This document shows positions 15,511 through 63,013 of a stretch of 64,000 nt of DNA, one piece after another. The notes beneath the pieces are model-generated. The model saw nothing but the letters and a program-made list of their open reading frames with translations, searched no databases and was not told the origin of the DNA. The translations under genes and the position numbers were made by a program. How positions within the stretch are numbered: position 1 is the stretch's first letter; every line of letters starts with the position of its first letter. Source of the DNA: Escherichia phage MX01; sequence record NC_031934.1; one strand, 5' to 3'.

Positions 15511-15538
15511 AATGTTCTCCTCATGTTTGTGTAAGGTA

Positions 15539-15568: not shown

Positions 15569-17691
15569 TACATTTTGAATTTATTTGATAAAGAAGAGAT
15601 GTCCAAAGATGCAGCAAGGATTTCCATAGCTTCGTTGCTTTCAGAAACGGATTCATTAACCAAGAATTGACTGAATCCATCCATCAGGCGAACTTCACCA
15701 GTTTCCATCAAATGGTCACCATCGTAAACAGATTCGCTGAGCTCTGAAGGAGGTGTTACGGTAGCTTCCATAAGGTATTTGTGAGATACTCTATCATTCA
15801 TGGCAAAAGCTGCTACTTTATCAACCTTCAACAATAATCCACGCGGAAGGATAATTTCTGCTTCTTCGGCATATTCTGTAAGGTCACCAGGAGCGATAAC
15901 TTTAACTGCTTCAGCACCTCGAATAACCATACCAATTTCAGCAATTCTATCTGCAGGACCTTCAGGTGCAATTGGATTACCAAACTCGTCTTCTTCCCAT
16001 TCTACCTCTTCATCATCGACTTCACCCACATCAGATGAACTACCGCTAGCCAATTTAAACAACTCATCAGCGGAGGATAAAGAACCTTCACCACCAACAA
16101 AAACGGCTTGGTTGTCGAGGGCCATATAATTTTTACCAAATTCGCCAAAGATGTTAGGCTTTAATGAGGCTGACACAAAGTTCTTAAAGTAAAATGTTTT
16201 GTTATCGATATTATGACGCAGAATTTTGTATGGCAAATCCTGACCACGATACAAAATAGTACCCTTAGGAAGTTTAATACCCTTAGTAAATGCTGAGTCT
16301 AAATCCTTAATCAATTTAATAGCCGTTGTATTGTTTTCGGATTCAGGTTTACCTAAAAGGAACAAGTTCATAGGAGCATATTCAGCTGCGCAATATTCAA
16401 TAATAGCATTGCTTTCGTCTTTGGTTAGGCCCTTAGGTTTAATGAGCTCACCTGAATAAGCATATGCATCACTAATAGAATCGTTAATTAGTTTATAAAC
16501 GGCTTCCATAGCGAAAGCAATTCGGGATGCTTTCTCTGAAGGGGAGCCTTTAAAACGGGTACTCAGGTTATTAACAATTTTCTTAATAATATCCAGACTA
16601 TTGGTTGTATTGATTTGCGAAAGGCCACTTAAAAGTCTATCGACTTCTGTATTAAAAAATGCCATATTATTAGAGTAAATTTCAAACCCTTGTTTATCTC
16701 TATTAGCATAATTTAGTTTAAATTTACTATCAGTCATTAAAGCGTGTGTGAGAGCAATAGTGTATCTAAAGTTGGCAAGGTCCTCGCTCTTAGATTTAAA
16801 CTGAGAAGCCTGGCGCATTTTGGTAATAGCACCTTTTTTAAAGTTCTGACTAATCTGTTCAATACCTTCGTTCTCAGGGCCTTCAGCCGTGTGAACCGGT
16901 ACAGAAGCTTCAAACTCGTTATAAACCTGCAATTCTTTAGGGGACAAAGTTTCAGGCTCAGCAGTAGAATACTGCGCCGCCGCTGCCATACGACGCGAAA
17001 TCTTAGTACGAGTAATGACAGCCTTATCAGTACGTTTCTCTTCAACTTGTGCAATAGATGCCGCTACGGCTTCGACCTTACTTACGGCCTGGCCGGTTTT
17101 CTTAGAAACATACACTTCGCCAACTTTAGACTCAACTTTAGTATAAAGATCGGCATTAATTTCAGGCATACCCTTGATATCTTCAATATTAGCACCACGA
17201 CGTACTAAAAGAACGTAGGTATGTTTTCCGCTGAATTGGAACATGTCGTCAACAACTTTAAACTTACCACCGGTACGAGCCATAGCCAAGCGAGCTAATA
17301 CGCGCTGAACGGTAGGACCTTTACCTTTCATTTTCTTAGTAGGGAAACGGAACAAAACCGCGTCCATTTTAAGTTTGTTTATTTGTTCATATATGGTATC
17401 GAAAATGGTGTTCAGTGTACCGAGTGGATCGGTACCCAAACCACCCTTGAGTTCTGCCGGAGCGCCTTTAGCAGATAAACTCATTAAGATAACATGGACG
17501 TACTTATCACCCGGCTTAACCATTTTAATAGCATCGCCTTCAGACGCGTATGAAACCATACGCGCTACTAAATTGTCATTACCAGGAGCATGGACCGCAA
17601 AAATCTGCGGTACGCCCGAGCCAGGTTTAAGATTTGTTACTGGGTAATTTTTTTTATCGCTTTTATCAAAAACTTCGTTTAAATTTTCCAT
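15568..17691 (-). CDS. alt: Alt-like ADP-ribosyltransferase, paralogue 1
   Basis: 707 aa; conserved N-terminal module; C-terminal R-S-ExE signature (LYRGQ, FVSASLKP, EAEIILPRG); unique acidic insertion. Confidence 0.85.
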   Translation of the reverse strand: MENLNEVFDKSDKKNYPVTNLKPGSGVPQIFAVHAPGNDNLVARMVSYASEGDAIKMVKPGDKYVHVILMSLSAKGAPAELKGGLGTDPLGTLNTIFDTIYEQINKLKMDAVLFRFPTKKMKGKGPTVQRVLARLAMARTGGKFKVVDDMFQFSGKHTYVLLVRRGANIEDIKGMPEINADLYTKVESKVGEVYVSKKTGQAVSKVEAVAASIAQVEEKRTDKAVITRTKISRRMAAAAQYSTAEPETLSPKELQVYNEFEASVPVHTAEGPENEGIEQISQNFKKGAITKMRQASQFKSKSEDLANFRYTIALTHALMTDSKFKLNYANRDKQGFEIYSNNMAFFNTEVDRLLSGLSQINTTNSLDIIKKIVNNLSTRFKGSPSEKASRIAFAMEAVYKLINDSISDAYAYSGELIKPKGLTKDESNAIIEYCAAEYAPMNLFLLGKPESENNTTAIKLIKDLDSAFTKGIKLPKGTILYRGQDLPYKILRHNIDNKTFYFKNFVSASLKPNIFGEFGKNYMALDNQAVFVGGEGSLSSADELFKLASGSSSDVGEVDDEEVEWEEDEFGNPIAPEGPADRIAEIGMVIRGAEAVKVIAPGDLTEYAEEAEIILPRGLLLKVDKVAAFAMNDRVSHKYLMEATVTPPSELSESVYDGDHLMETGEVRLMDGFSQFLVNESVSESNEAMEILAASLDISSLSNKFKM

Positions 17692-17694
17692 TAT

Positions 17695-19740
17695 TTACCC
17701 TTGGATGAATTTTTCTGGGATTTCGTCAAAATTAATACATGAAGCTAAAATAGGCATTATATCCACCTTGGTCGATTTGACAAATGAATCAAAAGACACA
17801 GGGTTGTCGGTCTCTGTTTCTACACCTTGGTAAACAACCAATTCGCCTGTTTCCATCAATGCATCGCCATCATAGATAACCGCATTTTCTGCTAGTTGGT
17901 CTGTGGTCTGGATATCTGCTTCCAATAATTTGGTGTTGTAGTTTCCTTTATATGAGGCATCAGTAATTTTAGTAATCTTAACTGTAGTTCCACGTGGAAG
18001 AATAACCTCTTGTTCTGTTGGAGAACCTGACAATTCACCAGGCATAATTACGTTAATAGAGTCTGCACCAGAAATTTTCCAGCCGATGTTCATCATTGTA
18101 TTTTCGGAACTCGTCAGCATACTTGGAAGAACAATTTCATTATCGCCTTGGAAAGATGTCCCAGCGCGATAGTCTTGATGTACTGCTGCCATTGCGACGT
18201 TTGATACCCAGCCGCCAAAGATAATTGGCTTAAGGGACGTTGATACATAGTTCCTGAAATAAAACAATTTTGAGTGTTTGATTTTATCAAAAGTGTTAAC
18301 ATTTAAATATTGCCCACGCCAAAGTGTAATATCAGGTGGCAATTTATGGCCAATTTCAAATGCCGCATCCATATCGTTAATTACTTCAATTACACGCTGG
18401 CTATCAATGAATTCTGCATCCTCTTCATAATAATTACCCAACAAATAATTATTAACATCGGTATAATATTGGCCACAATAAGAAGAAATAGCCTCACGCT
18501 GCTCATACTCAAATCGATTATCGCTATAACCGGCTGTAAAATGCATAAGACTTTCTGATGCTTCATTAGCAAAGTCGGTAACAGCAGCACTTATACGTTG
18601 AGCATACTCTTGTTCCCAAAGCTCTGCTGCATATTCTGACGCATCCATATTAGGAGGGGCCTCATTCACTTTTCTTTCGATAAATGCAGCTTTGCGAAGG
18701 TTAAGAATCTCTGCACATGATTCGGCAAAAATCTGCATCTGCTTCATACTGCCAACAGGAGCACGTTTAAGTTCACGATGCATACGGTTAAAAATTGGGT
18801 CAGAGTCTTCGACTCGAATTTCTTCTTTCCAAACACCATTTGCTCGCATAGCCGTATCTGCCGCGCGCATACGGTCCATAGTATTCGTTTCAGAAGGTCG
18901 AACAAAAATTTCTAGTTCTTCATAATCATCGATAAGTTCTGCCGTAGCCGGTCGACTAAACTTAGCAGCTTCTGCATCAATTTCGTCCCAACCTTCCGGA
19001 ACTTCATCTCGAGGAGAATACTGGGCTGCGGCCACAGCACGCCTAGAAATCTTGGTAGTAGTAATAACAGCCTTATCCGTACGTTTTTCTTCGACTGCCG
19101 CTATACTAGCAGATAGTGCTTCTATTTTGGTTACTGATTGGCCGGTTTTCTTAGAAACATAAACCTCACCAACTTTAGACTCAACCTTAGTGTAAAGGTC
19201 TGCATCAATTTCAGGCATACCTTTTATGTCCTCAATATTAGCTTGTTTACGAACCAGTAAAACGTATGTATGTTTGCCTGTAAATTGATACATATCATCG
19301 ACAACTTTAAACTTGCCGCCAGTACGAGCCATCGCCAAACGTGCCAATACACGTTGAACAGTAGGACCCTTACCTTTCATTTTCTTGGTAGGGAAGCGGA
19401 AAAGAACTGCATCCATTTTAAGTTTATTTACCTGTTCATATACCGTATCGAAAATGGTATTCAATGTACCAAATGGGTCAGAACCTAACCCACCTTTCAA
19501 CTCGGCTGGGGTACCCTTAGCAGACAAACTCATTAGAATAACGTGGACATATTTGTCGCCTGGCTTAACCATTTTAATAGCGTCTCCTTGAGACGCATAA
19601 GATACCATACGAGCAACCAAGTTATCATTACCTGGTGCTTGGATAGAGAAAATCTGTGGAATACCGGAACCTGGTTTAAGATTTATTACTGGATAGTTTT
19701 TAGCGGAATCACTATCAAAAACTTCGTTTAAATTTTCCAT
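17695..19740 (-). CDS. alt: Alt-like ADP-ribosyltransferase, paralogue 2
   Basis: 681 aa; same N-terminal module; LWRGQ, YVSTSLKP, EQEVILPRG. Confidence 0.85.
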   Translation of the reverse strand: MENLNEVFDSDSAKNYPVINLKPGSGIPQIFSIQAPGNDNLVARMVSYASQGDAIKMVKPGDKYVHVILMSLSAKGTPAELKGGLGSDPFGTLNTIFDTVYEQVNKLKMDAVLFRFPTKKMKGKGPTVQRVLARLAMARTGGKFKVVDDMYQFTGKHTYVLLVRKQANIEDIKGMPEIDADLYTKVESKVGEVYVSKKTGQSVTKIEALSASIAAVEEKRTDKAVITTTKISRRAVAAAQYSPRDEVPEGWDEIDAEAAKFSRPATAELIDDYEELEIFVRPSETNTMDRMRAADTAMRANGVWKEEIRVEDSDPIFNRMHRELKRAPVGSMKQMQIFAESCAEILNLRKAAFIERKVNEAPPNMDASEYAAELWEQEYAQRISAAVTDFANEASESLMHFTAGYSDNRFEYEQREAISSYCGQYYTDVNNYLLGNYYEEDAEFIDSQRVIEVINDMDAAFEIGHKLPPDITLWRGQYLNVNTFDKIKHSKLFYFRNYVSTSLKPIIFGGWVSNVAMAAVHQDYRAGTSFQGDNEIVLPSMLTSSENTMMNIGWKISGADSINVIMPGELSGSPTEQEVILPRGTTVKITKITDASYKGNYNTKLLEADIQTTDQLAENAVIYDGDALMETGELVVYQGVETETDNPVSFDSFVKSTKVDIMPILASCINFDEIPEKFIQG

Positions 19741-19743
19741 TAT

Positions 19744-21828
19744 TTACCCTTGGATGAATTTTTCTGGGATGTCATAGAGGTCTATGCATGAAGCCAAAAG
19801 AGACAGCACATCAACCCGTGTAGATTTAACAAATGAATCAAAAGATACAGGGCTTTCGGAAGTATCGAAATCATCTTGATATACGACCAACTCGCCGGTT
19901 TCCATTAGTACGTCACCATCATACACCACAGATTCTTGAAGCTCATCTGTTGTCATAACTTCGGCTTGGATGAGTTTTGTATTATTAGATGTTGTTCCAT
20001 CATTATTAGAAGCATCTGTTATTTTATTAACTTTGACCATTAATCCACGTGGTAGAATAACTTCAGCTTCAGTTGCTATTCCGAGATTTCCTGGATATAC
20101 AACATTAACTTTATGAGCCCCATCAATCGCCCATCCTATTTGAACTTTAACGTATTCAGGATTTTCTTTATATGCTCTTATTTCATTAGGATTGATAGTT
20201 ATTCCTTCTTCATTTTTATCGACTGTCAATTCATTGCGAACTTCAGGTTCTAAAAGACCAATACCTGCGTGGGTAACACCAAAACGTCCGAAAATGATAG
20301 GAGTTAATGAAGTAGATACAAAATTTCTAAAATAAAACACTTTATTTTTAACTAGTGCTTCGTATATAGGAGCAGTCATACTCTGTGCACGATAAACTGT
20401 GATGCCTTCTGGTATACGGTCGCCATTTTCAAAAGCAGAATCCAAATTATTAACTGCAGATTCGATATCTTTTTCACTCATAATCTCATAGTTATGAGGA
20501 TTGTAACGACCTAAAAGAAGGTTATTTATATCGCCGTATCCAGAGCCACAATATTCTCTGATGCCACGCTTTTGCGATGGGGTATATTTAGAACCCTCAC
20601 GAGCAATAGTAATATCAACCATTGAACCACCACCCACACCAGCAAAACTATATACGCGTTTTTTAATGAATTTGGTCTTGGCTGCTTTCCACTTGGACTC
20701 GGTCAATTCATTCCAGAGGTCATCAGGTTGTCCTTTACGAGTTTTGTTATGCGTAGCCAACCACTCGCCTTTGTATTCTTCGAAAACGGTATTAATAGCA
20801 GAGGCATATTTTTCTAGAGCTTTAACAGATGTCAAAGGTTCGTTTTTGATGGCTGATAGGATTTTCTCTTTAATTTTCTCTTTGATTTCACCTATACCGT
20901 GAAGAGGAAACATTTTATAATCGTAATGCAATTCTTCAGCAGTACCTTCAGCTACTATATTAGCAACCTTATTTTTAGCCGCAGGAGAATTGTTATTAGT
21001 AACCATTTCCTGGGCCTCAGGGATTAATGGAACTGTTGCCGGTTTATTAAAATCCGCTGCAGTAGCTTCATATTTCTTAAACAATTCACTTTCATTACGA
21101 TAAGATTCCAATGATTGGCTTGCTGCAATGGCGCGCCTAGAAATCTTAGTCTTGGTTATAACCATTTTATCAGTGCGACGTTCTTCAACCTTAGCAATAC
21201 TGCCGGCAATAGCAGTTTCTTTAGTAACCTGCACACCTTCTTTTTTGGAAATATAAACTTCACCGACATCAGAATCTACCTTAGTATACAATTCAGCATT
21301 AATTCCAGGCATACCTTTGATATCTTCGATATCAGCTTGTTTACGGACTACCAGGATGTAAGTATGTTTACCGGTAAATTGGTACATAGCCGGAACCACT
21401 TTAAAACGTCCACCGGTTTTCTGTGTTACCAAACGTTGGATAATACGTTGAACGATAGGGCCTTGACCTTTCATTTTCTTGGTAGGAAAACGGAACATCA
21501 CGGCATCCATACGAAGCTTTTTAACTTGGTCATAAACCACATCAAAAATAGTATTAATCGCATCTACAGGAGTAGGGCCAAGGCCACCTTTAAGTTCGGC
21601 TGGAGTACCTTTAGCTGAAAGGCTCATAAGGATAACGTGGGCATATTTATCACCCATTTTAACTTGTTTAATAGCATCACCTTCAGAAGCGTAGGATACC
21701 ATACGAGCAACTAATTGGGACTCTGCATCGCCAATCTTCCAAATCTGGGGTACTTTAAGTTTTGGGTTCAAGTTTACTGTAGGCAGAGTGCCTTCGGACT
21801 CAAACACTTCATTTAATTGTTCGGTCAT
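19744..21828 (-). CDS. alt: Alt-like ADP-ribosyltransferase, paralogue 3
   Basis: 694 aa; same N-terminal module; VYRAQ, FVSTSLTP, EAEVILPRG. Confidence 0.85.
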   Translation of the reverse strand: MTEQLNEVFESEGTLPTVNLNPKLKVPQIWKIGDAESQLVARMVSYASEGDAIKQVKMGDKYAHVILMSLSAKGTPAELKGGLGPTPVDAINTIFDVVYDQVKKLRMDAVMFRFPTKKMKGQGPIVQRIIQRLVTQKTGGRFKVVPAMYQFTGKHTYILVVRKQADIEDIKGMPGINAELYTKVDSDVGEVYISKKEGVQVTKETAIAGSIAKVEERRTDKMVITKTKISRRAIAASQSLESYRNESELFKKYEATAADFNKPATVPLIPEAQEMVTNNNSPAAKNKVANIVAEGTAEELHYDYKMFPLHGIGEIKEKIKEKILSAIKNEPLTSVKALEKYASAINTVFEEYKGEWLATHNKTRKGQPDDLWNELTESKWKAAKTKFIKKRVYSFAGVGGGSMVDITIAREGSKYTPSQKRGIREYCGSGYGDINNLLLGRYNPHNYEIMSEKDIESAVNNLDSAFENGDRIPEGITVYRAQSMTAPIYEALVKNKVFYFRNFVSTSLTPIIFGRFGVTHAGIGLLEPEVRNELTVDKNEEGITINPNEIRAYKENPEYVKVQIGWAIDGAHKVNVVYPGNLGIATEAEVILPRGLMVKVNKITDASNNDGTTSNNTKLIQAEVMTTDELQESVVYDGDVLMETGELVVYQDDFDTSESPVSFDSFVKSTRVDVLSLLASCIDLYDIPEKFIQG

Positions 21829-25698: not shown

Positions 25699-26064
25699 TT
25701 AGATATCGAATTCGTTCAGAACTACATCAAAGATTGCTTCCAGGTGTTCAGGTTTAGCTCGGTTGCTCAGGATGTGACGAATCCAAGTTTTAACCAGAAG
25801 CTTACGATTAACACCGTTCCAGCAAGGATGGGTACCTAAATCACGTTGACGGAAATCATCATCTAAAGCGATTTTAAAAGTAGAACCTTCCATTGTGATT
25901 GAAACCGTAATACCATTTTCAAAGCGCATATAAACGTAGTTAGGAGTCATGCACTGTTCGATTTCGCACACCGCGCCGTTGTTGTGTTTCCACAGGCAAA
26001 TAACTTCAGAAGAACCAGCGATACCGTTAGAAACATATTTACGTTCGAAGTTGATGTAGTTCAT
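25699..26064 (-). CDS. Hypothetical protein (121 aa)
   Basis: ORF preceded by GGAGAATAAAATG and the shared leader. Confidence 0.5.
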   Translation of the reverse strand: MNYINFERKYVSNGIAGSSEVICLWKHNNGAVCEIEQCMTPNYVYMRFENGITVSITMEGSTFKIALDDDFRQRDLGTHPCWNGVNRKLLVKTWIRHILSNRAKPEHLEAIFDVVLNEFDI

Positions 26065-26105
26065 TTTATTCTCCAGTTTGTTTTCGTATTATTTGGTACA
26101 GGTCT

Positions 26106-26134
26106 ATAATAACACAACCTGTACCAAAGTAAAA
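26106..26134 (-). promoter_or_regulatory. Candidate early promoter (variant -35)
   Basis: Minus-sense TTTTAC, 17-nt spacer, TATTAT, then the conserved leader. Confidence 0.35.
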
Positions 26135-26137
26135 CAT

Positions 26138-26470
26138 TTATTTCACAACATTCCAATTTTTCATATCAAGTTTACCAACTTTTTTCATCTGAGCAATCAG
26201 ACGTTCAGCGCGTGTACGGGCATTAACATAATAGAATTCACCATTTTTGTTTTCTTCAATACGACCAGTAATTACAGTTTTCAGTTCATAAATCCAACCT
26301 GTAAAGAAGTTGTGAAGCTCGATGGTGAACGTGAAATCAGTACCCGTACCTTCAGTTGTTTCAACTTCGATGATATCACCTTCAACTGCAGTCAGGACCC
26401 ACATGGTTTCTTGATATCCGCCGTTGAAACATTTAGCTTTAACAGATGCATTCAGATTTACAGTTTTCAT
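26138..26470 (-). CDS. Hypothetical protein (110 aa)
   Basis: ORF preceded by the same leader and Shine-Dalgarno as the neighbouring gene. Confidence 0.5.
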   Translation of the reverse strand: MKTVNLNASVKAKCFNGGYQETMWVLTAVEGDIIEVETTEGTGTDFTFTIELHNFFTGWIYELKTVITGRIEENKNGEFYYVNARTRAERLIAQMKKVGKLDMKNWNVVK

Positions 26471-26511
26471 TTTATTCTCCAGTTTGTTTTCGTATTATTT
26501 GGTACATGTCT

Positions 26512-26540
26512 ATAGTATCATGCCTACCGGAGATGTACAC
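26512..26540 (-). promoter_or_regulatory. Candidate early promoter (variant -35 GTGTAC)
   Basis: Minus-sense GTGTAC, 17-nt spacer, TACTAT, conserved leader. Confidence 0.4.
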
Positions 26541-26568
26541 CATTTTTTAAAGATTTAGAAACAAAAAT

Positions 26569-26586
26569 GGGACTCCGAAGAGTCCC
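26569..26586 (-). terminator. UUCG-tetraloop hairpin
   Basis: Minus-sense GGGACUC-UUCG-GAGUCCC, perfect 7-bp stem. Confidence 0.6.
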
Positions 26587-26591
26587 ATAAC

Positions 26592-27731: not shown

Positions 27732-27789
27732 ATTTAATCCATATTGTTTTGTTGATAGATTAATAATAACACGCTATTCTTAAAGCATA

Positions 27790-29100: not shown

Positions 29101-29654
29101 TAGATGCTCTCCAACTTAAGTTGTTTGGTAGTGGTAGCTTGGGTAATGTCGCCTTTAACAATATAACACACTTGTTGGAACGACTTAGTCAAAAGCTCTT
29201 CAGCCTGACGATCGGCTTGTTCCTTTGTGTTATGGCGAGAATGAACTTCAATCTTACCATTTTTAACAATAAGCACTTTCCAATCAGCCGGAGTTTTAAT
29301 AGGTTTGATTTCAGGGTTCTGGAAAACTAACTGCACTTCTTTAGGGTCTACCACTTCAATAAAGTATTCGAATTCATGGCTAAAAAAGCCCGCTGAATTA
29401 AAAAGAACACTATTTGCATCGTCAGGATTACCTGTGATTTTGCTCAGGTCGATAAACATCATCTCGTCATATACACGAATTCGGCTTACACGTTCATGAC
29501 CATTATGATAATCAATTTCAACTTCAAACGGATTCATACCCACATACTTAGCAAAAGCTGTATTGAGGCCATAAGCACCGTTATTAGTGAATTTGTTTTT
29601 AGTGTATTCACCAACGAACTTGTAAAACTTACGCTCTTCAAAGAACTGGCTCAT
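29100..29654 (-). CDS. Hypothetical protein (184 aa)
   Basis: Start set at MSQFFEERKFY with GAGGA Shine-Dalgarno; longer extension would overlap the upstream gene. Confidence 0.5.
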   Translation of the reverse strand: MSQFFEERKFYKFVGEYTKNKFTNNGAYGLNTAFAKYVGMNPFEVEIDYHNGHERVSRIRVYDEMMFIDLSKITGNPDDANSVLFNSAGFFSHEFEYFIEVVDPKEVQLVFQNPEIKPIKTPADWKVLIVKNGKIEVHSRHNTKEQADRQAEELLTKSFQQVCYIVKGDITQATTTKQLKLESI

Positions 29655-29716
29655 TTCGATTTCCTCATTTGTTTCGGTAGGACTACTATACCACAGTCCT
29701 ACCATAGTGTAAACAC

Positions 29717-29995
29717 TTAAATTGCTTCGACAACTACCGTTTGTTTCTGGAAATCCATTTTGCATGAAATAGCCAAAATGTGGTTATCAATTTTAAATGG
29801 AACGATTGCAAATGCTGCACCGGGCGTGAGTTGAACAGTGATTGCATCAACTGCATCCGGGAACATGATTTCCAGAATAGCAGACAAACGACCGTGCACT
29901 TTTAGTTCAGTCGACACGTCGACGCTTTCGTATAGATAATCAGATACAATCTGACTAAAAACTACTTTAACAATTTCAGAATAAGTAGGGAACAT
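29717..29995 (-). CDS. Hypothetical protein (92 aa)
   Basis: ORF in cd.x region. Confidence 0.45.
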   Translation of the reverse strand: MFPTYSEIVKVVFSQIVSDYLYESVDVSTELKVHGRLSAILEIMFPDAVDAITVQLTPGAAFAIVPFKIDNHILAISCKMDFQKQTVVVEAI

Positions 29996-31611: not shown

Positions 31612-31615
<4 letters not shown>

Positions 31616-32094
31616 ACACCAAGTTCCTTATAAAGTTCTTCACGGCAAGTTTTAAGGGTTTTACCCGATTCGTAAGCAACACTTTCAGGAACATCGCCAA
31701 GGGTTACTGCGGATTGCATTTGACCGTGACGTTTAGCCGCGTATTCAAAACTTTTCACTAGCTCACGAATACGTTCTTTTTCATTATATTCTTCAATGAA
31801 TTCAGGGTATTCCCAAACCGGACGCATCATACGATACCACTGTTGGATGGTGATATAATTACTTCCATCCAAATTAATAATCTGCGAAGGCTCAATAGAC
31901 CCTGGAGCATAAAAAGTTACCTGTCTTACTACATCAATACCGTCCACAATAGCCCAAGCAAAATCGAAAGTTGCCTTCTTTTCAATTGGCGTGCTTGCAC
32001 AGGACCCTAGCTTAAGGAGCTTTTGTAATGCAGGAGATTTGACACCTGAAATGTATTCAGGCTTAGCCACAAAACTGTTATCACGTAAAGTCAT
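31612..32094 (-). CDS. Hypothetical protein (160 aa), extra relative to T4 order
   Basis: Start set at MTLRDNSFV; no motif recognised. Confidence 0.45.
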
Positions 32095-32261
32095 AATAAT
32101 TTCCTCAATTTTTATAATCCGTAGGAGCATTATACTCCGCTCCCAAGAGTTTGTAAACTACTTTCCAAAAATACCATTTATACACATGCTAAGCACGATT
32201 CCAAAACAAAAGCATGTAAAGCCAAATAGAATGACATCCGACCCATCGATACAAGACTCAA

Positions 32262-32902: not shown

Positions 32903-33390
32903 TTGGTAATAATCTCGATGATGTCATCACGTGACAGGGAATTAATAAGAACCGTTTTAGGATTTTCGCACTGAATTTTGTACGTTTCGAACATAAAACA
33001 CAATTCTTCAGCGGTATGGTAAGGACTTGAAATGCCAAGGCGATTAAACTTGTCGCTTAATGGGTCACAAATCAAATAGAAAGTGATGCCTGAGATTTTG
33101 ACATTAGGTTGACTAATATTAATGAACACCTCGGCATCATACTTGGAAAGGTTGTTTTGGAGAAACTCAACCATAGAGTTGACGGCTTCAGGCATGGCTT
33201 CACGCTTTTCTTCTGCATAACGGGTAGAGTATTCTTTTTGCTTGATTTTCTTTTTAGCATTTTTAGCTAAAGTGACACGAAGATCGGTCAGGTAACCTAC
33301 TGCACGAGAACCTTTAAAAACTTGGATGCCGTCAGTAGAGTCACCAAAAGCCTTAACAACCATTTCGTTAGTAATCATTTGCATATTCAT
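32890..33390 (-). CDS. Alc-position protein (possible Alc transcription factor)
   Basis: 166 aa ORF between rnlA and the spanins, where T4 has alc (167 aa); positional only. Confidence 0.4.
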   Translation of the reverse strand: MNMQMITNEMVVKAFGDSTDGIQVFKGSRAVGYLTDLRVTLAKNAKKKIKQKEYSTRYAEEKREAMPEAVNSMVEFLQNNLSKYDAEVFINISQPNVKISGITFYLICDPLSDKFNRLGISSPYHTAEELCFMFETYKIQCENPKTVLINSLSRDDIIEIITKCLN

Positions 33391-33420
33391 TTTGTTTTCT
33401 CCTCATTAGTTGGTAAGTCT

Positions 33421-33449
33421 ATACTAACACGTCATGAGGAGATGTAAAC
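33421..33449 (-). promoter_or_regulatory. Candidate early promoter
   Basis: Minus-sense GTTTAC, 17-nt spacer, TAGTAT, conserved leader. Confidence 0.4.
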
Positions 33450-38657: not shown

Positions 38658-40343
<1,686 letters not shown>

Positions 40344-40368
40344 TTTATTCTCCTTAGTTGATAAGGCT

Positions 40369-40398
40369 ATAGTATCACTACCATAGCCTGGTGTAAAC
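40369..40398 (-). promoter_or_regulatory. Early promoter
   Basis: Minus-sense GTTTAC, 18-nt spacer, TACTAT, conserved leader AGCCTTATCAACTAAGGAGA. Confidence 0.5.
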
Positions 40399-40644
40399 TT
40401 ATTTTTGAATTAAGCCCATATAAAATTTAGCGTCTTCCGGGTGCATACCGTCACAATACTCGTAAGCCATAAAGCGGGTAAGGTCTTCAAGAGGACCTTG
40501 GACTTCAATTTGCATACTACAGAATTGAGTATCTTTAATATGGGTCATAACTAAAGAAGGATAACGATTACGGATAACTTCGTAAGTGTATTCAAAATCA
40601 ACGATATCAATATTAACCTTAGCCATTTTATTTTCCTCACTCAT
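40399..40644 (-). CDS. Hypothetical protein (81 aa)
   Basis: ORF preceded by GAGGAAAATAAAATG. Confidence 0.5.
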
Positions 40645-40658
40645 TAGTTGATAGGTCT

Positions 40659-40687
40659 ATAGTATCATGTTTAAAGGCGTTGTAAAC
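40659..40687 (-). promoter_or_regulatory. Early promoter
   Basis: Minus-sense GTTTAC, 17-nt spacer, TACTAT, conserved leader. Confidence 0.55.
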
Positions 40688-40689
40688 AT

Positions 40690-40950
40690 TTATTTTTGAA
40701 TTTTATCAAGCCATTTACCAAGTTTAATCATTTCTTTGGTAGCTTTTTCCATACTTCTAAATTTAACCAGTAAAGGTTGGGCATCAACACCCATAACTAA
40801 GGTGGTTACAAGACTATGTTCACCTACAAGCCATAATGAATAAGTTTGGATATCGAGCCCGTAATTTCGGTCTTTATGAACTCGTACACCCATCACTTCA
40901 AATTTCTCACTGGCTTTTTCTACTGCATCCAGGAAATCATCTTTAGTCAT
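40690..40950 (-). CDS. Hypothetical protein (86 aa)
   Basis: Start set at MTKDDFLDAV, 1 nt after the upstream stop (TAAtATG). Confidence 0.45.
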   Translation of the reverse strand: MTKDDFLDAVEKASEKFEVMGVRVHKDRNYGLDIQTYSLWLVGEHSLVTTLVMGVDAQPLLVKFRSMEKATKEMIKLGKWLDKIQK

Positions 40951-40951
40951 A

Positions 40952-41341
40952 TTAGGCCTTAAAAGTTTTTTGCAAAAGTTCAATGATTTGGTCAACGTTC
41001 TGTTCGGTGACAATGCAATGGATTTGAGTCACACCGGCCTTAGCAATAGGCTCATCGATTTCTTTATCTTCCACAACATATTCACAGAAGCAATAGAACT
41101 CATCTTCATGCAACTCAAAATAATTTGGCACCAACCCAAATGCATTATAAATCTCGCCGTTAGCACATTCGATTTCAGTCACAAATTTGTCGCCATCCAT
41201 AGTCAACATATCCTTTACTTCAAACCAACCTCCGTTGTCTTGGATAAGGTCGACCATGCTTTTATTATTTTCATATTCGTCCATTTCAATAAAGTCTTTA
41301 ATGCATTCAGGACGAAGTTCATAAGTTTTACCGATTTCCAT
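40952..41341 (-). CDS. Hypothetical acidic protein (129 aa)
   Basis: ORF preceded by GAGGAAATAAAATG. Confidence 0.5.
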   Translation of the reverse strand: MEIGKTYELRPECIKDFIEMDEYENNKSMVDLIQDNGGWFEVKDMLTMDGDKFVTEIECANGEIYNAFGLVPNYFELHEDEFYCFCEYVVEDKEIDEPIAKAGVTQIHCIVTEQNVDQIIELLQKTFKA

Positions 41342-41372
41342 TTTATTTCCTCATCTATTAGTTGATAGGTCT

Positions 41373-41401
41373 ATAGTATCATGTTTAAAGGTATTGTAAA
41401 C
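41373..41401 (-). promoter_or_regulatory. Early promoter
   Basis: Minus-sense GTTTAC, 17-nt spacer, TACTAT, conserved leader. Confidence 0.55.
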
Positions 41402-41417
41402 CATTAAATGCCAAAAA

Positions 41418-41437
41418 GGGAAGACCGAAGTCTTCCC
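41418..41437 (-). terminator. UUCG-tetraloop terminator downstream of gene 32
   Basis: Minus-sense GGGAAGAC-UUCG-GUCUUCCC, perfect 8-bp stem followed by a T-run. Confidence 0.7.
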
Positions 41438-41453
41438 ATTATAAATCAATAAC

Positions 41454-42463: not shown

Positions 42464-43081
42464 TCACTTCGAATAAAGCATTTTCAACTTAATGAATTCA
42501 GGGTCATCATTAGGAACCCAACCCTCATTAAATTGTTTAATCATACTCTTTGATGTAGTTTCACTAACATTTATACCAGAGTTAATGAGACGCCTCCATC
42601 CACAAGCTCTTCCACTAGAATTAATTATACAATAATTAGTATAAGCAATATCACTAAGCATCCAATCTAAAGGGTTTGCTCTAGAAGTTTTCCAAGGACG
42701 GTAATCAGGTTGATTCATATAGTTAGCAGCTTTCATATGGGCTCTAACTTCAGGACGTTTGGCTGGGTGAGTGCATCCAAAGACTCCAAATCCGCCACCG
42801 GCATAAACCAAATTAAAATAATCATCATTATCTCTAGCTTGAACTTCCAATTGTTCTGAACGTTCAATATTAATAACAATATCAAATGGCGTTATAGCCA
42901 AAATTTCAACAATAGGTTTTTCTTCTTCGATGGCCTCTTTAAATCTTGATTGCTCGCAAGAGGTCCAATACTCTTTACCTTTACAGTCAATAATCACGCC
43001 ATTTTCAAAAGTACAATTAGTTTTAGAACCTATGTACGAAAACGGCTTAATATTATTAGCCTGACGATTAAGCCAAGTCAT
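42464..43081 (-). CDS. Hypothetical protein (205 aa) between genes 59 and 32
   Basis: ATG start 14 nt after the gene 59 stop, no obvious Shine-Dalgarno; Cys-containing; glycine loop YAGGGFGVFGCTHP; no GIY-YIG or HNH motif seen. Confidence 0.5.
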   Translation of the reverse strand: MTWLNRQANNIKPFSYIGSKTNCTFENGVIIDCKGKEYWTSCEQSRFKEAIEEEKPIVEILAITPFDIVINIERSEQLEVQARDNDDYFNLVYAGGGFGVFGCTHPAKRPEVRAHMKAANYMNQPDYRPWKTSRANPLDWMLSDIAYTNYCIINSSGRACGWRRLINSGINVSETTSKSMIKQFNEGWVPNDDPEFIKLKMLYSK

Positions 43082-43095
43082 TTTATAAACTATAT

Positions 43096-43749
43096 TCAAA
43101 ATTTGCAACCCTTAATTGTTTCAATGAACAATTTACGAGCTTCTAAATTATCGATTATAAGAATTTTCTTATAAGCATTTAATTTAGTCGAATACTTAGA
43201 CCATACTAAATCGTTGGTCTGTTCATCATGTTTATCAATTATATCCATAAATGAATCAAGCAAAATAAACGTTTCGAATGAAATAACATTCGATTGAAGG
43301 AGCTTAAAAATATAGCTCGAGTTAACTTTTTTATTATAATCAAAAATTTCAGAAAGCGATTGAACTTCCACTTTCTTACTGAAATAATAAATGTTTTTGA
43401 TATCATCCTCAAAAACTTGTTTTATTCTTTTAAGTCTACCGATATATTCTCGGTAAAAGACTAAGGCGTCAGCATCACTGATGTCGCCAATCCATGCGTC
43501 TTGGTTAGCTACCAAGTTACTCATGAAAATAAGAGCAAGCTCTTTCAAAGTGTATTTATCACTCAATTTCTCAAAGAAATATTTGTCACGACGTTTTTGG
43601 TAAGCCGTATCAGAGATTCGCATGACCCAGTTATATTTTATAACGTCGTATTTGGCATTGAAGTGATGTTTGAGCATTAAGTATAGTGAATATACGCTCT
43701 TACCATTCACCATACGGTTATTGTTTGGTGGCATGCGAATCTTAATCAT
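43096..43749 (-). CDS. 59: Helicase loader gp59
   Basis: 217 aa; MIKIRMP..., SNLVANQDAWIGDISDADALVFYREYIGRLK match T4 gp59 as recalled. Confidence 0.9.
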   Translation of the reverse strand: MIKIRMPPNNNRMVNGKSVYSLYLMLKHHFNAKYDVIKYNWVMRISDTAYQKRRDKYFFEKLSDKYTLKELALIFMSNLVANQDAWIGDISDADALVFYREYIGRLKRIKQVFEDDIKNIYYFSKKVEVQSLSEIFDYNKKVNSSYIFKLLQSNVISFETFILLDSFMDIIDKHDEQTNDLVWSKYSTKLNAYKKILIIDNLEARKLFIETIKGCKF

Positions 43750-44308: not shown

Positions 44309-45256
44309 TTAATAAAAATCAGCTACTGTAGCGGTTAGTTTAGACAAACCAGATTTAACGAAATAAGGATAAACTTTAGATTTCGAAGGTTTGTTATACG
44401 TATTATATCTTTCAGTAATTAAAGCAACAATATCATCTGGAATAAAGTCCATATCAATTAAGATTTGGTTTTCACAGAAACGTTCATATTGTTCTTCAGT
44501 AAGAAGTGTTTTAATTATATCATGGTCGTAATAATTAAGAGCAATTGCTTCAAGTTCCTTGGCACGAGTGCTAGGAGTACGTTCGCCTTCAACCATCGTC
44601 AACCAGTAATCACCACGAACTTTAATACTCGCGACGTTATCCTTGCGGTCGCCTTTAACAACCTTAGTTACACAATCCAATAATGAATCGCCAGATTTTG
44701 TTTTGACGAATTTTTTCTGCATTGGAGACCATTGTTTTACCCCAGGGAATTTATGGAGTTGGGTAAAGTCACCATCCGAAGAACCGATCATAACAGGATG
44801 GCCTAAAGTTGTAAGGATACGGGTTAAAACAGCAATATGGTCGTCAGCTTCGATTGTATCGATATTCATAACAATATAAGGCATGTTTTGTTCCAGTTCA
44901 TCAACAATAATATGCATTGCTGTGAATAAACCTTCCCAATCAAATGGTGATTCGTCACGTGCCTTAGCACGGTTTTTCTTATAATAAGGTGAATAGCGAC
45001 GACGCCAATAACCTGATTTAGAGTTATCAACACAAATAACCAGTTGGTTGTAACCTTGTTTACGGAAGTCTTTAATGTTTTTCTTAATTGAATTCAACAC
45101 GAGGTGTCGAAGCATTGCTGTAGTTACTTTAGGAAATCCAGCATTCTCACCAAACTCTTGGAAAGCTGCAGCCATAATGATTTGGCTGAAATCTAGGAGT
45201 AAAAATCCATCTTTTTGTTGGTCTTCTTCAGGAAGTAAAAAATCTAAATCGTTCAT
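44309..45256 (-). CDS. rnh: RNase H (5'-3' exonuclease)
   Basis: 315 aa; ADDHIAVL and SSDGDFTQLHK match T4 RNase H as recalled. Confidence 0.9.
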   Translation of the reverse strand: MNDLDFLLPEEDQQKDGFLLLDFSQIIMAAAFQEFGENAGFPKVTTAMLRHLVLNSIKKNIKDFRKQGYNQLVICVDNSKSGYWRRRYSPYYKKNRAKARDESPFDWEGLFTAMHIIVDELEQNMPYIVMNIDTIEADDHIAVLTRILTTLGHPVMIGSSDGDFTQLHKFPGVKQWSPMQKKFVKTKSGDSLLDCVTKVVKGDRKDNVASIKVRGDYWLTMVEGERTPSTRAKELEAIALNYYDHDIIKTLLTEEQYERFCENQILIDMDFIPDDIVALITERYNTYNKPSKSKVYPYFVKSGLSKLTATVADFY

Positions 45257-45287
45257 ATGAACCTCTGTTCAAGTAGTTGAGAGGTCC

Positions 45288-45316
45288 ATTATATCATGGG
45301 TTTTAAGGAAGTAAAC
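45288..45316 (-). promoter_or_regulatory. Early promoter for rnh
   Basis: Minus-sense GTTTAC, 17-nt spacer, TATAAT. Confidence 0.55.
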
Positions 45317-56053: not shown

Positions 56054-56325
56054 AAATTGGAGGTATACATCATTAGGTAGCGGTGTATATCTTCATACCC
56101 TTCATTAAATTGCTCAATAAGAGTTTCACGCTCGTCTTCAGTTAAAGACTTAAATAATTTGTTATAAGACAAACCATTAAGTTCCTTTCCATGTTCATTA
56201 CGAATACCTAACTCATTCAAAAAGGCAATAAACTCATCACGACGTTGCATGATGTCTTCACAATCAGTTTTAATCAAAATGGAAACAATAGTGGCAATTT
56301 CGGAAACGATTTCAATTTTAGTCAT
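56050..56325 (-). CDS. asiA: Anti-sigma70 factor AsiA
   Basis: 91 aa; C-terminal EQFNEGYEDIHRYLMMYT matches T4 AsiA as recalled. Confidence 0.85.
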   Translation of the reverse strand: MTKIEIVSEIATIVSILIKTDCEDIMQRRDEFIAFLNELGIRNEHGKELNGLSYNKLFKSLTEDERETLIEQFNEGYEDIHRYLMMYTSNF

Positions 56326-56366
56326 AATATTCTCTTCAATTCAGTACGTCATTATCTGATAGGGCT

Positions 56367-56395
56367 ATACTAACATATCCTTAGGGATTGTAAAC
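56367..56395 (-). promoter_or_regulatory. Candidate early promoter for asiA
   Basis: Minus-sense GTTTAC, 17-nt spacer, TAGTAT, conserved leader. Confidence 0.4.
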
Positions 56396-57742: not shown

Positions 57743-58375
57743 TTAAATTGCGTTAGTTACGGTTTTGATAACTTCAGATGATACATTTTGGAAGTCGATA
57801 TAAGTATTCTTACCACCAGTCTTAATCTTAACATCTAGATTCAAGGAAGTAAACACTTGTTTTTCTTTATCAGTCATATTATAACCGAAGATGCGCATCA
57901 TTCCGTCACGGCGGACTTCAATTTGACGAATGCCATTGGTGCGTTTGGCGAATCGAACTTCAAGGTTGCTACGGTTTTCAGCAATTTCACGAATCTCGAT
58001 ACGGTCTTCTAATAAAGCTTTAACTTCATCAGCCAGTGTTACCATTTCAGGAGTAACACCACGTGAACTACGCGTTTTACGTTTTTCCAACATCTCTGGG
58101 GCATTTTCAGAAGCGAACAGGTCGGCAGCTTTTTGAACTAGGTCCATTGCTTCACCTGTAGCCACTAAACCGTCACCAGATTTTTCGATGAATCCTTTCT
58201 TAATCAATACACCGATGTTAGAGTTAACTACCGCAGCACTAAATTGCTCACTCAGGGCTTCACGGACTTCACCTGAAGTGATGAAGTTATGCTTGATGAT
58301 ATGTACTAAGATCGAAGCAGTTTTTTCATTCAGGACGTCTTCAGAAGCTTTGATGATATAAGTAATTTTAGACAT
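57743..58375 (-). CDS. motA: Middle-transcription activator MotA
   Basis: Start at MSKITYIIKAS with GGAG Shine-Dalgarno; 210 aa; matches T4 MotA as recalled. Confidence 0.85.
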   Translation of the reverse strand: MSKITYIIKASEDVLNEKTASILVHIIKHNFITSGEVREALSEQFSAAVVNSNIGVLIKKGFIEKSGDGLVATGEAMDLVQKAADLFASENAPEMLEKRKTRSSRGVTPEMVTLADEVKALLEDRIEIREIAENRSNLEVRFAKRTNGIRQIEVRRDGMMRIFGYNMTDKEKQVFTSLNLDVKIKTGGKNTYIDFQNVSSEVIKTVTNAI

Positions 58376-58413
58376 TTTGTATCTCCATTTCACTCTATTG
58401 TTTTGATAGGTCT

Positions 58414-58442
58414 ATAGTATCATGTTTAAAGCAGAAGTAAAC
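58414..58442 (-). promoter_or_regulatory. Early promoter for motA
   Basis: Minus-sense GTTTAC, 17-nt spacer, TACTAT, conserved leader. Confidence 0.55.
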
Positions 58443-58465
58443 ACTTTTTTCACCAAACCCAAAAA

Positions 58466-58485
58466 AGGAACCCGAAGGTTCCTTA
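58466..58485 (-). terminator. UUCG-tetraloop hairpin
   Basis: Minus-sense AAGGAACC-UUCG-GGUUCCUU, perfect 8-bp stem. Confidence 0.6.
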
Positions 58486-60211: not shown

Positions 60212-60298
60212 ATTTTCCTCATTAGCGTCCGAAGACGCCTTTAGTTTTAAGATTATTACGATAGAACTGCATCACATGTTCGTTATAGAAATTGCTCA

Positions 60299-60748
60299 TT
60301 AGTAAGCCTGCAGAATGAATTTAAAGTTATCAGCCAACATACGGTTCATTTCTTCCAGTGTCTGGAGGTCGGAACTATGATTGCGAGTGAAAGCCATTGC
60401 AATTTGACCCTTACCAAAACCTGTAGTCAGAGGTTTCATCTTAGAAGCTGGTACATAAAGAACTTCATACACAACACCGTTCACTGCCATGGTGCGGGCT
60501 GATTGAGAACGTTTCTTACGAATGTTAGCCACGATACCGTCGAGACCTTGAGCCGAACGTTGATTACCGACATAAAAACGAGCCGCTACGACACGAGAAT
60601 CAGCTCCACCTTTAACAAAGAAGTAGAAGCCTGGCTGAGCAGCCGTTTCTTTAGAAGGTTTACCATTTTGGTATTCACCATTCTTAACATAAGCAACAGT
60701 AGTAGCACCAGCAGACAGAACGTTACGGCGAGTCATATAAGTATTCAT
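60299..60748 (-). CDS. ndd: Nucleoid disruption protein Ndd
   Basis: 149 aa; [23 protein letters not shown] and C-terminal [18 protein letters not shown] match T4 Ndd as recalled. Confidence 0.8.
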
Positions 60749-60797
60749 ATCAATTTCCTCAGTAGATTAATGTTTTGTTATCCGGTCAACGAGAACC

Positions 60798-60826
60798 ATT
60801 ATAACATGATTCTCGAGGTTGTAAAC
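60798..60826 (-). promoter_or_regulatory. Early promoter for ndd
   Basis: Minus-sense GTTTAC, 17-nt spacer, TATAAT (consensus). Confidence 0.6.
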
Positions 60827-61435: not shown

Positions 61436-61514
61436 TCATAAAAACGATTGGGAAAATGCTCAATACAACCAATAACACAAACATGTTCCAAATTGCTTTA
61501 AGTAAGTTTTTCAT
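61404..61514 (-). CDS. Small hydrophobic peptide (36 aa)
   Basis: Hand-translated MKNLLKAIWNMFVLLVVLSIFPIVFMIDHVRVFFNF; GGAG Shine-Dalgarno; early promoter upstream. Confidence 0.3.
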   Translation of the reverse strand: MKNLLKAIWNMFVLLVVLSIFPIVFMIDHVRVFFNF

Positions 61515-61540
61515 AATCATCTCCATTAGTTGATAGGTCT

Positions 61541-61569
61541 ATAATATCATGATTAATGGAGATGTATAC
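61541..61569 (-). promoter_or_regulatory. Candidate early promoter (variant -35 GTATAC)
   Basis: Minus-sense GTATAC, 17-nt spacer, TATTAT, conserved leader. Confidence 0.4.
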
Positions 61570-61659: not shown

Positions 61660-61926
61660 TCAAAACACCACCTCTTTTATCTCAATCAATCCATCGGACA
61701 ATGCAACACGGAGGTCATAAAAAATATCTATACCATCAATATTGTCCAGCTTGCCATCAATAAGCTTTTTTAAATCACGCTTTGAGGCAACTAACGGGCG
61801 GAGAAATTTACAATCAGAAAGAGATAACTCTGTAGTAACATCATCGCCGTCACCCGACGCGTCATACATAGCGGCAACAACCATACCTGTAACTTTGTGT
61901 TTAGCGTAATATAATTTGATATCCAT
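61660..61926 (-). CDS. Hypothetical protein (88 aa)
   Basis: Start set at MDIKLYYAKHK with GAGGAGAA Shine-Dalgarno; extension would run through the promoter. Confidence 0.5.
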   Translation of the reverse strand: MDIKLYYAKHKVTGMVVAAMYDASGDGDDVTTELSLSDCKFLRPLVASKRDLKKLIDGKLDNIDGIDIFYDLRVALSDGLIEIKEVVF

Positions 61927-61954
61927 TTTGTTCTCCTCATTAGTTGATAGGAAG

Positions 61955-61984
61955 ATAGTAACACCATCCATGGCGTATGTAAAC
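61955..61984 (-). promoter_or_regulatory. Early promoter
   Basis: Minus-sense GTTTAC, 18-nt spacer, TACTAT, conserved leader. Confidence 0.5.
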
Positions 61985-62997: not shown

Positions 62998-63013
62998 GGA
63001 GGCCGAAGCCTCC
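62998..63013 (-). terminator. UUCG-tetraloop hairpin downstream of rIIB
   Basis: Minus-sense GGAGGC-UUCG-GCCUCC, perfect 6-bp stem. Confidence 0.6.

Follow-up and report, generated by a model that had tools for sequence, protein, structure and literature searches.

Repeated early promoter-leader cassettes with internal inverted repeats in the T4-like Escherichia phage MX01

The early promoters (Pe) of bacteriophage T4 have a published signature (the Wilkens and Ruger consensus, as reviewed) composed of the two hexamers, a TGn element and an A-rich upstream tract; they also carry "additional regions of consensus", and their counterparts in related phages are C-rich at positions -3 to -1 (PMC2988021; PMC1524935). 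Promoter-early stem-loop (PeSL) cassettes, defined by an upstream stop codon within an AT-rich tract, a promoter, a stem-loop, a Shine-Dalgarno (SD) sequence and an ATG (PMC2839356; PMC4122927), are known from RB49/phi1 (Arbiol et al., 2010; PMC2839356), PST/T4 and nt-1/KVP40 (Comeau et al., 2014; PMC4122927). Two further systems concern the SD sequence itself: the RegB/S1 target, with the consensus GGAGRAYARAA (Durand et al., 2006; PMC1702504), and the T4 genes e, soc, 49 and I-TevI, in which an SD-sequestering hairpin is combined with an internal promoter (PMC3014915). Here we describe a family of repeated promoter-leader elements in a 64,000-nt stretch of the Escherichia phage MX01 genome (NC_031934.1; this whole stretch is called the window below), including those in the region 40355-41440, which holds three small genes between gene 32 and frd.

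Our reading, to which we assign a probability of roughly 0.85, is that these elements are T4-type early promoters for host sigma-70 RNA polymerase with their 5' leaders and SD sequences, that they fit the PeSL cassette, and that recombination between cassettes homogenises the copies and shuffles the genes between them. By sequence identity the window is part of a genome of the genus Dhakavirus (Straboviridae, Tevenvirinae; the JS98/Bp7 group of T4-like coliphages): its segment 39000-43000 shares 98% identity with Enterobacteria phage vB_EcoM_IME540 and 90-97% with Bp7, PSD2002, IME08 and JS10. Gene names were transferred from the annotation of Bp7, JS10 and T4, which gives the order 24, hoc, uvsW, baseplate genes, alt, 30, 31, cd, pseT, alc, rnlA, nrdAB, td, frd, 32, 59, rnh, tail fibre genes 34-38, t, asiA, motA, 52, ndd and rIIB. 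The minus strand of the window carries the early and middle genes, and all cassettes and hairpins described below are located on that strand.

A reading made from the letters of the window before this analysis (the sequence-only reading) had pointed to at least 13 near-identical minus-strand elements. All 13 sites indeed carry GTTTAC or a one-base variant of it, a 17-18 nt spacer ending in TGn, a TAYNAT hexamer, a AGACCTATCAAC-like block, an SD sequence and an ATG, and at least three further sites can be added. A profile built from the 13 sites recovered all of them together with 45321-45274 (rnh, E=1.4e-4) and 29721-29661 (E=3.8e-4), and gave a weaker match at 27775; its search of both window strands returned no significant match on the plus strand. 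A stricter rule-based scan, demanding a promoter, an SD sequence, an ATG and an open reading frame (ORF), yielded 16 sites, one of them new (at 3754), and an additional promoter-like site is located at 32164. In the window, the pattern GTTTAC-N16-19-TAYWATAG has 5 matches where 0.01 are expected, and a 21-nt leader string, with up to three mismatches allowed, also has 5 (0.00 expected). GTTTAC (at most one mismatch), the 17-18 nt spacer and TAnnnT were found in 16/16 scanned sites, TGn in 15/16, and an SD sequence followed by ATG in 16/16, at a distance of 25-49 nt between the -10 hexamer and the ATG. The conserved leader that had been claimed is present at all 13 sites as a AGACCTATCAAC-like block, but its strict core, CTATCAACTAA, occurs in only five or six, the variants elsewhere being CAAAAC, GTACCAAAT and TTACACAAAC. 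The stop codon of the upstream gene usually lies in an AT-rich tract before the -35 hexamer, as in AAAAATAA-GTTTAC (40398), AAAATAAAT-GTTTAC (40687) and AAATAAGT-GTTTAC (61984). The cassettes stand before about 16 of the 78 minus-strand genes (approximately 20%), and the genes downstream of them include the orthologues of the classical T4 early genes motA, asiA, alc, ndd, frd.1, frd.2, frd.3, 30.7, 30.8, alt.-3 and rnh.

The earlier assignment of these sites to early promoters is strengthened by their position before orthologues of early genes and by GTTTAC, TGn, TAnnnT and an A-rich, UP-like upstream tract (near -42), all of which agree directly with the consensus of T4 early promoters. The same rule, applied to the T4 genome, picked out sites of the known type in front of the corresponding orthologues. 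The T4 copies also have CTATCAAC just after the -10 hexamer, as TACTAT-ACAACTATCAAC or TACTAT-TACCCTATCAAC. The two sets of promoters, which serve the same genes, differ in the discriminator, ACAACT or TACCCT in T4 and AGACCT in Dhakavirus, and in the reassignment of cassettes between genes. In the module that we propose, the A/T-rich tract, usually holding the upstream gene's stop codon, would form the 5' end, followed by a putative host sigma-70 "early" promoter (GTTTAC as -35, 17-18 nt spacer, TGn as extended -10, TAYNAT) and by a conserved discriminator and start region, AGACC-T-A(+1)TCAAC, with AUCAAC... as the predicted first transcribed bases. From what is generally known of sigma-70 and T4, host RNA polymerase would start about 7 nt after the -10 hexamer, at the A of CCT-A-TCAAC, immediately after infection and within the first minutes, and the short, G-poor, unstructured leader with its strong SD sequence (often GGAG) would give efficient translation of the small early gene.

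The likeness to PeSL cassettes that had been suggested also held up, with the corrections given below: the window elements agree, some of them only loosely, with the published layout given above, and share with PeSLs (i) this layout and the position before small accessory ORFs, (ii) in part of the copies, stem-loops, with G-T pairs, between -35 and -10 or over -10, corresponding to the class I hairpins described below, and (iii) at some loci, cassette-flanked insertions, deletions and replacements between close relatives, with crossovers between the -10 hexamer and the SD sequence. The differences are that the Dhakavirus copies belong to another genus and have their own homogenised sequence with a 12-15 nt conserved discriminator/start block, that they have no GGGG/CCCC stems and about one third of them have no stem-loop of any kind, and that a subset shows a long-range pairing between spacer and SD sequence, which goes undescribed in the PeSL papers (PMC2839356 uses neither "translation" nor "ribosome"). 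That the JS98/Bp7 group, too, has early promoters of the T4 type and PeSL cassettes is in itself unsurprising. It is of use for the annotation and engineering of therapeutic coliphages, as cassettes mark places at which a gene can be exchanged and the adjacent ones left intact.

A dispersed repeat of 45-60 nt, with about nine exact core copies per genome, could also be a small mobile element or the gene of a structured non-coding RNA (a riboswitch or small RNA) rather than a promoter-leader. We consider this extremely improbable. A scan of the whole window against Rfam gave zero family matches, and the identity as a small RNA or riboswitch was rejected on that ground; the predicted own transcripts of the cassettes (from the putative +1) are unstructured, with folding energies of 0 to -1.8 kcal/mol and z about 0. 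Terminal inverted repeats and target duplications are lacking, the orientation and the distance to the ATG are fixed, and each copy has sigma-70 hexamers at canonical spacing.

The reading as early-promoter cassettes further includes their exchange by recombination, for which the first evidence is the uniformity of copies within a genome. Over the 22 nt beginning with the -10 hexamer, most window cassettes match a paralogous cassette of their own genome at 18-22 positions, and only the divergent alt.-3, cd.2-3, pseT.x and ndd copies fall to 11-16, while the match to the T4 orthologue is 11-17 of 22. Each genus has its own dominant variant, TACTATAGACCTATCAAC in Dhakavirus, TACTATACAACTATCAAC in T4 and TATAGTAGTCCTATCAAAAC in RB69, and YCTATCAA around +1 is the only part common to all three. 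The exact 18-mer TACTATAGACCTATCAAC occurs about nine times per genome, before at least 12 unrelated ORFs; in IMG/VR it was found almost only in contigs of 155-172 kb of the Dhakavirus type, which also hold near-identical alc loci, apart from three metagenome-contig matches without promoter context. Cassettes have also changed places. In T4, alc and alt.-3 have nearly the same promoter, which is unlike those of their Dhakavirus orthologues. Upstream of alc, a class II cassette is present in Dhakavirus and T4, a class I cassette in Mosigvirus-like contigs and a GGGG...CCCC hairpin over the -35 hexamer in VR7-like contigs, and the class I cassette GGTAGGACT/AGTCCTACC that precedes alc in the Mosigvirus-like contigs precedes a cd-region ORF in Dhakavirus. 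The promoter-leader of T4 denV (T4 65,413 region), TACTATAGACCTATCAACTACAGGAG, corresponds to the Dhakavirus type and differs from the remaining early promoters of T4, which suggests that this cassette moved together with denV or was swapped from one lineage to another. As the cassettes are more alike than promoter function needs, we read their uniformity as probable concerted evolution by recombination between cassettes. With each genus keeping its own homogenised promoter-leader while the genes keep their positions, this would be a clean case of concerted evolution of viral regulatory DNA.

The second line of evidence comes from gene content. The window was aligned to IME540, Bp7, PSD2002, JS10 and VR5 (six Dhakavirus genomes in all) and the junctions were inspected. 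The clearest case, with three different states, is the 52/motA locus, where the window and IME540 have no gene, Bp7 has one small ORF and JS10 another that is unrelated to it; VR5 also carries an insert. Two near-identical cassette copies flank every one of these inserts, and in Bp7 and JS10 the two copies agree almost completely over about 40 nt. PSD2002 has an additional ORF between two copies of the 61955 cassette, and its 30.8 body is a different one, swapped exactly between the 30.8 and 30.7 cassettes. JS10 has neither 30.7 nor 30.8, and its 30.8 promoter is fused, just after TATAGAC, to the standard leader before 30.6. The body of frd.2 is replaced in Bp7 and VR5 from 20 nt past the ATG of the cassette. 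The repeat is therefore present at gene-swap junctions of related genomes (52/motA, the 61955 site of PSD2002 and 30.7/30.8), the comparison that had been proposed for checking the sequence-only reading, and the crossover positions reported for the RB49 mini-circles agree with the Dhakavirus junctions (PMC2839356; PMC4122927 for the PeSL model). Homologous recombination between cassettes would homogenise the copies and would occasionally insert, delete or swap a gene between two of them, with promoter and gene moving as one module, as in the PeSL model.

Several observations weigh against this reading. Neither a stem-loop nor a terminator could be recognised in six or seven of the 16 window cassettes, which thus correspond to the PeSL definition only loosely. 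Among the 26-28 structural differences between the window and its five relatives, about 8 touch a cassette (4 clearly inside repeated cassette sequence and 4 adjacent to it); since cassettes already precede approximately 20% of the minus-strand genes, this is no significant excess over indels simply falling at gene boundaries, and the enrichment of these 26-28 events at cassettes relative to a gene-boundary null was not significant. The remaining indels are insertions of homing endonucleases or introns, tandem duplications (alt, 30.4 and frd.2) and junctions at overlapping stop/start codons. Part of the within-genome uniformity could, moreover, result from selection within each lineage for an optimal start region and not from gene conversion. 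The suggestion that cassettes mediate modular shuffling of genes is thus illustrated by the cassette-bounded insertions, deletions and swaps among the six genomes, but not borne out by any statistical excess of them. Free-standing homing-endonuclease-like ORFs and an intron, present or absent among the relatives (window 42464-43108; relatives 6858-6875, 34608, 35544 and 43742), explain several of the non-cassette indels.

The absence of enrichment (about 8 of 26-28, with about 20-30% expected) is in line with a simpler explanation, in which the repeats are plain strong promoters, independently selected to the same optimal recognition and start sequence for sigma-70/Alt-RNA polymerase, with no role in recombination, and cassette-flanked inserts show only that an early gene, once gained, needs a promoter of this kind. 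The sharing of YCTATCAA by T4, RB69 and Dhakavirus likewise suggests functional constraint. On balance this explanation appears unlikely, although it deserves serious weight: the discriminators differ by genus (T4 ACAACT/TACCCT, RB69 AGTCCT, Dhakavirus AGACCT) in equally canonical promoters, and because three genera use different ones the exact discriminator is not functionally required, though it is uniform within a genome. The near-identity over about 40 nt of the copies flanking the Bp7 and JS10 inserts and crossovers inside the cassette core, as in the RB49 mini-circles (PMC2839356), also argue for recombining cassettes.

The stem-loops of the PeSL type are here inverted repeats inside the promoter, which had gone unnoticed in the sequence-only reading. 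Two classes were defined: in class I the spacer pairs with the -10 end and the discriminator, and in class II it matches the reverse complement of its own gene's SD sequence. An Alc-based search for related loci yielded 12 close loci, too few for per-gene covariation, and whole genomes were compared instead: JS10, T4 and RB69, the last examined only afterwards, together with the 16 sites of the window. In roughly half of the early promoters of Dhakavirus, T4 and RB69, the spacer is complementary to the promoter's own discriminator or own SD sequence. The pairing of each spacer with its cognate partner was compared with its pairing to partners taken from the genome's other promoters (20,000 permutations); cognate specificity had P=1e-4 for class I but only P=0.06 for class II in the window, P<5e-5 and P=1.5e-4, respectively, in JS10, P<5e-5 for both classes in T4, and P<5e-5 and P=8.5e-4 in RB69. 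The regB arms keep their pairing with different sequences in T4 (UCCUCUUGACUG/CAGUUAAGAGGA), JS10 (AUCUCCUGUAG/CUACAGGAGAU) and RB69 (UUCUCCUCUAGUUG/CAACUAGAGGAGAA), and the same was observed across genera for denV, motB.2, alc, 30.8 and the ndd.4-like ORF. With 38 unselected cassettes placed in one register, the helix was 68% paired as compared with 61% in shuffles (reached in 0/500) and 31-52% in slid controls; cells changed on both sides numbered 45 as compared with 22.8 (0/500 shuffles), a count that overstates independence because the rows are related sequences.

In the window, class I comprises four hairpins over the -10 hexamer, with duplex energies of -12 to -19 kcal/mol, and two weak ones. 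The four enclose -10 at 26085-26140, 29672-29720, 40355-40404 and 60778-60826, and three of them, when folded, reach -16 to -20 kcal/mol with z of -3.7 to -5.6: the 10-bp hairpin UGGUACAGGU/ACCUGUACCA around the -10 of the 30.7 cassette (26062-26134; -20.2 kcal/mol, z -5.6), whose 47-nt leader is common to 30.8; GGUAGGACU/AGUCCUACC in the cassette of an ORF between cd.3 and cd.2 (29652-29714; -18.4 kcal/mol, z -3.7); and AGGCUAUGG/CUAUAGCCU over the -10 of the frd.1 cassette (40341-40398; -16.1 kcal/mol, z -3.7). The fourth is the repeat CGAGAAUC/GGUUCUCG of the ndd cassette (60746-60826), which has a divergent leader. Compensatory differences from the T4 orthologues were found in class I, with AGGCUAU/AUAGCCU in place of AGGGUA/UACCCU and GGUAGGACU/AGUCCUACC in place of GGUAGAG/CUCUACC. 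A PeSL stem-loop overlapping -10 was described by Arbiol et al. and read as an attenuator (PMC2839356). In the T4 record, a 14-bp stretch (133,300-133,313) is noted as having earlier been reported as its inverted complement. It falls inside the class I repeat of the early promoter of cd.2/cd.3, covering an arm and some of the loop, and either an error in sequencing or a genuine flip between inverted repeats could account for the discrepancy.

With symmetric selection of the pairings, the mRNA-sense duplex is more stable than the antisense one in 17/19 class I and 18/22 class II cases, the non-cognate background being about 50%. The G.U pairs thus sit on the mRNA strand, which favours action at the level of RNA over that of DNA. 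T4 is known for templated quasi-palindrome mutations, and the class I loops are short (8-12 nt) and compatible with cruciforms; the inverted repeats might accordingly be sought in DNA, as cruciform or hairpin targets of recombination (for endonuclease VII, for example) or as products of quasi-palindrome template switching. The PeSL authors likewise speculated that the stem-loop is the target of a DNA-binding recombination protein (PMC2839356). We find such a role improbable, in view of the strand asymmetry, of the class II arms, which lie 23-40 nt apart and always involve the SD sequence, and of the near mutual exclusion of internal hairpins and upstream terminators described below, which indicates a role at the transcript level.

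As the spacer lies upstream of the predicted transcription start, a class II anti-SD arm would occur only in read-through transcripts, and the pairing would hide the SD sequence and the RegB site in those transcripts alone. Three spacer-SD helices were found in the window, in the cassettes of 30.8 (26468-26540; spacer UCUCCGGU, SD ACUGGAGA), alc (33388-33449; UCUCCUCAU and AUGAGGAGA) and an ndd.4-like membrane ORF (61512-61569; AUCUCCAUUA and UAAUGGAGAU). In the predicted read-through RNA the SD sequence is in a helix in each case, with folding energies of -11.6 kcal/mol (30.8), -17.4 kcal/mol (alc; z -2.9) and -18.8 kcal/mol (ndd.4-like ORF; z -3.5), as compared with 0, -0.6 and -1.8 kcal/mol, respectively, for the promoter's own transcript. 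Averaged over all sites, SD accessibility is 0.28-0.36 in read-through RNA and 0.63-0.65 in the own transcript; swapped or shuffled spacers gave the same all-site average as cognate ones, so this generic effect was dropped as evidence of sequestration, and the claim is limited to a subset of the family. The three lines of sequence evidence that speak for specificity are the duplex-energy permutation, the covariation and the strand asymmetry. The rnh leader (45254-45290) contains a predicted hairpin, GACCUCU/AGAGGUU, that hides the rnh SD sequence (its T4 counterpart, AAUCUC/GAGGUU, includes a G.U pair). Because the 5' arm begins within the discriminator, the hairpin may be absent from the promoter's own transcript.

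The hairpins to which the sequence-only reading had drawn attention are different structures. Several cassettes were said to be immediately preceded by a UUCG-tetraloop hairpin, and this is the case for 3 of the 13 (26512, 41373 and 58414), but these are ordinary intrinsic terminators and not the stem-loops of the cassette. They are located at 26567-26588 upstream of the 30.8 cassette, at 41418-41437 (the gene 32 terminator, GGGAAGAC-UUCG-GUCUUCCC, 17 nt upstream of the frd.2 -35 hexamer) and at 58465-58484 upstream of the motA cassette; as each is followed by a T-run, we interpret them as intrinsic terminators of the upstream transcription units. The window holds 10 UUCG hairpins, of which the other seven are not beside cassettes and some stand before plain SD sequences without a promoter; with 3/10 before cassettes and T-runs after all three, the UUCG hairpin was rejected as an integral cassette part. 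The hairpins at 62998-63013 and 60225-60238 are directly followed by TAATGAGGA and a start codon, with no promoter, which indicates that TAATGAGGA is a general ribosome-site motif of the phage and not specific to the cassettes. Upstream terminators are rare where an internal hairpin is present: across the window, JS10, T4 and RB69, a terminator lies within 85 nt upstream of 17/62 hairpin-less promoters, 0/28 class I and 4/29 class II promoters (Fisher P=0.007 for the exclusion in the first three genomes, i.e., the window, JS10 and T4). Terminators, class I and class II thus look like alternative devices. Besides the class I hairpins, the window cassettes include four with upstream terminators and the three with spacer-SD helices.

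From this we derive a tentative proposal, to which we give somewhat less than even odds, namely that in three genera the spacer of about one quarter to one third of T4-type early promoters contains an anti-SD sequence matched to the SD of the gene driven, that the gene is translated and cut by RegB only from its own promoter, the long polycistronic RNAs of the middle mode remaining silent and intact at that place, and that this is one of three interchangeable insulators. Each cassette would tend to carry one of these against read-through: a conventional UUCG terminator located before the -35 hexamer would stop incoming transcripts, a class I hairpin would attenuate or process them, and a class II helix would leave the read-through RNA untranslatable and RegB-resistant at that cistron, whereas the exposed GGAG sites of the promoter's own transcripts would then be cut by RegB. 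No earlier description of anti-SD sequences in early-promoter spacers was found in the literature searched, though older papers may contain one. The promoter spacer is usually treated as sequence-neutral, and here it is often complementary to its own SD sequence or discriminator; if functional, the pairing would show how a dense phage genome makes translation depend on the promoter of origin of an RNA, and might explain why RegB spares GGAG sites in long transcripts.

The further suggestion that the shared leader is a common translational control element needs to be divided, as two things and not one are involved, the RegB/S1 target and, in a subset, the SD-spacer pairing. The perfect 11-nt RegB/S1 consensus occurs in four window leaders, at 26106, 26512, 40369 (the end of the frd.1 leader, GGAGAATAAAA) and 61955 (GGAGAACAAAA), and GGAG is found within the SD sequence of 9 of the 13 leaders first listed and in 10 of the 16 scanned cassettes; JS10 has an annotated regB, and the gene is thus present in the genus. 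By sequence these are candidate RegB sites, resembling the known target in the GGAG of the SD and in the predicted lack of structure of the own-transcript leaders, but the target covers only the 3' end of the cassette and is a general feature of early SD sequences, not specific to the repeat. Cassettes with a spacer-SD helix may work like e, soc, 49 and I-TevI without being members of that family. An SD-hiding helix whose 5' arm lies upstream of an internal promoter start, making the long RNA untranslatable and the promoter-proximal one translatable, is predicted for alc, 30.8, the ndd.4-like ORF and rnh in the window and for regB, denV and motB.2 in T4, JS10 and RB69. The arm here occupies the spacer between -35 and -10 of an internal promoter of the early sigma-70 type, whereas their internal promoter is late (TATAAATA), and the predicted outcome is "early-only" translation as opposed to "late-only" translation.

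Among the remaining cassettes of the window, that of frd.2 (41339-41401) has the structure GTTTAC-17-TACTAT-AGACCTATCAACTAA-SD-ATG with no internal hairpin. Over the 22 nt beginning with the -10 hexamer, it is identical to the cassette of the neighbouring frd.3-like ORF (MAKVNIDIV; 40624-40687), whose spacer in JS10/JS98-type genomes is GGTCTATAG, complementary to CTATAGACC. The rnh cassette (45254-45316), in which the discriminator/leader GACCUCU pairs with the SD-containing AGAGGUU, is followed by those of asiA (56323-56395), motA (58373-58442; a junction of the three-state locus) and a small ORF beside denB (61924-61984), and a cassette at 947-1008 serves a small ORF between genes 23 and 24. 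The site at 3692-3754, absent from the first list, is early-promoter-like with the -10 hexamer TAAGAT, stands before a 24.3-like ORF and has a terminator upstream. At 32100-32164, GTTTAC-18-TATAAT without TGn and with a short GGAGC/GCUCC repeat around -10 precedes the ORF 31612-32130, the body of which is missing in Bp7 and IME540. The alt.-3 cassette (15508-15568) has a leader, TACCTTACACAAAC, that resembles the T4 30.8 leader and is unlike the T4 alt.-3 leader. Next to it, at 15568-21828, the window contains three tandem paralogues of alt (ADP-ribosyltransferase), two being present in IME540, Bp7, JS10 and VR5, and the alignment break lies at the upstream edge of the alt.-3 cassette. Finally, a sequence before gene 31 (27751-27787) resembles a MotA-dependent middle promoter (TGCTTTA, 12 nt, TATTAT) followed by the CTATCAAC start region found in the early cassettes.

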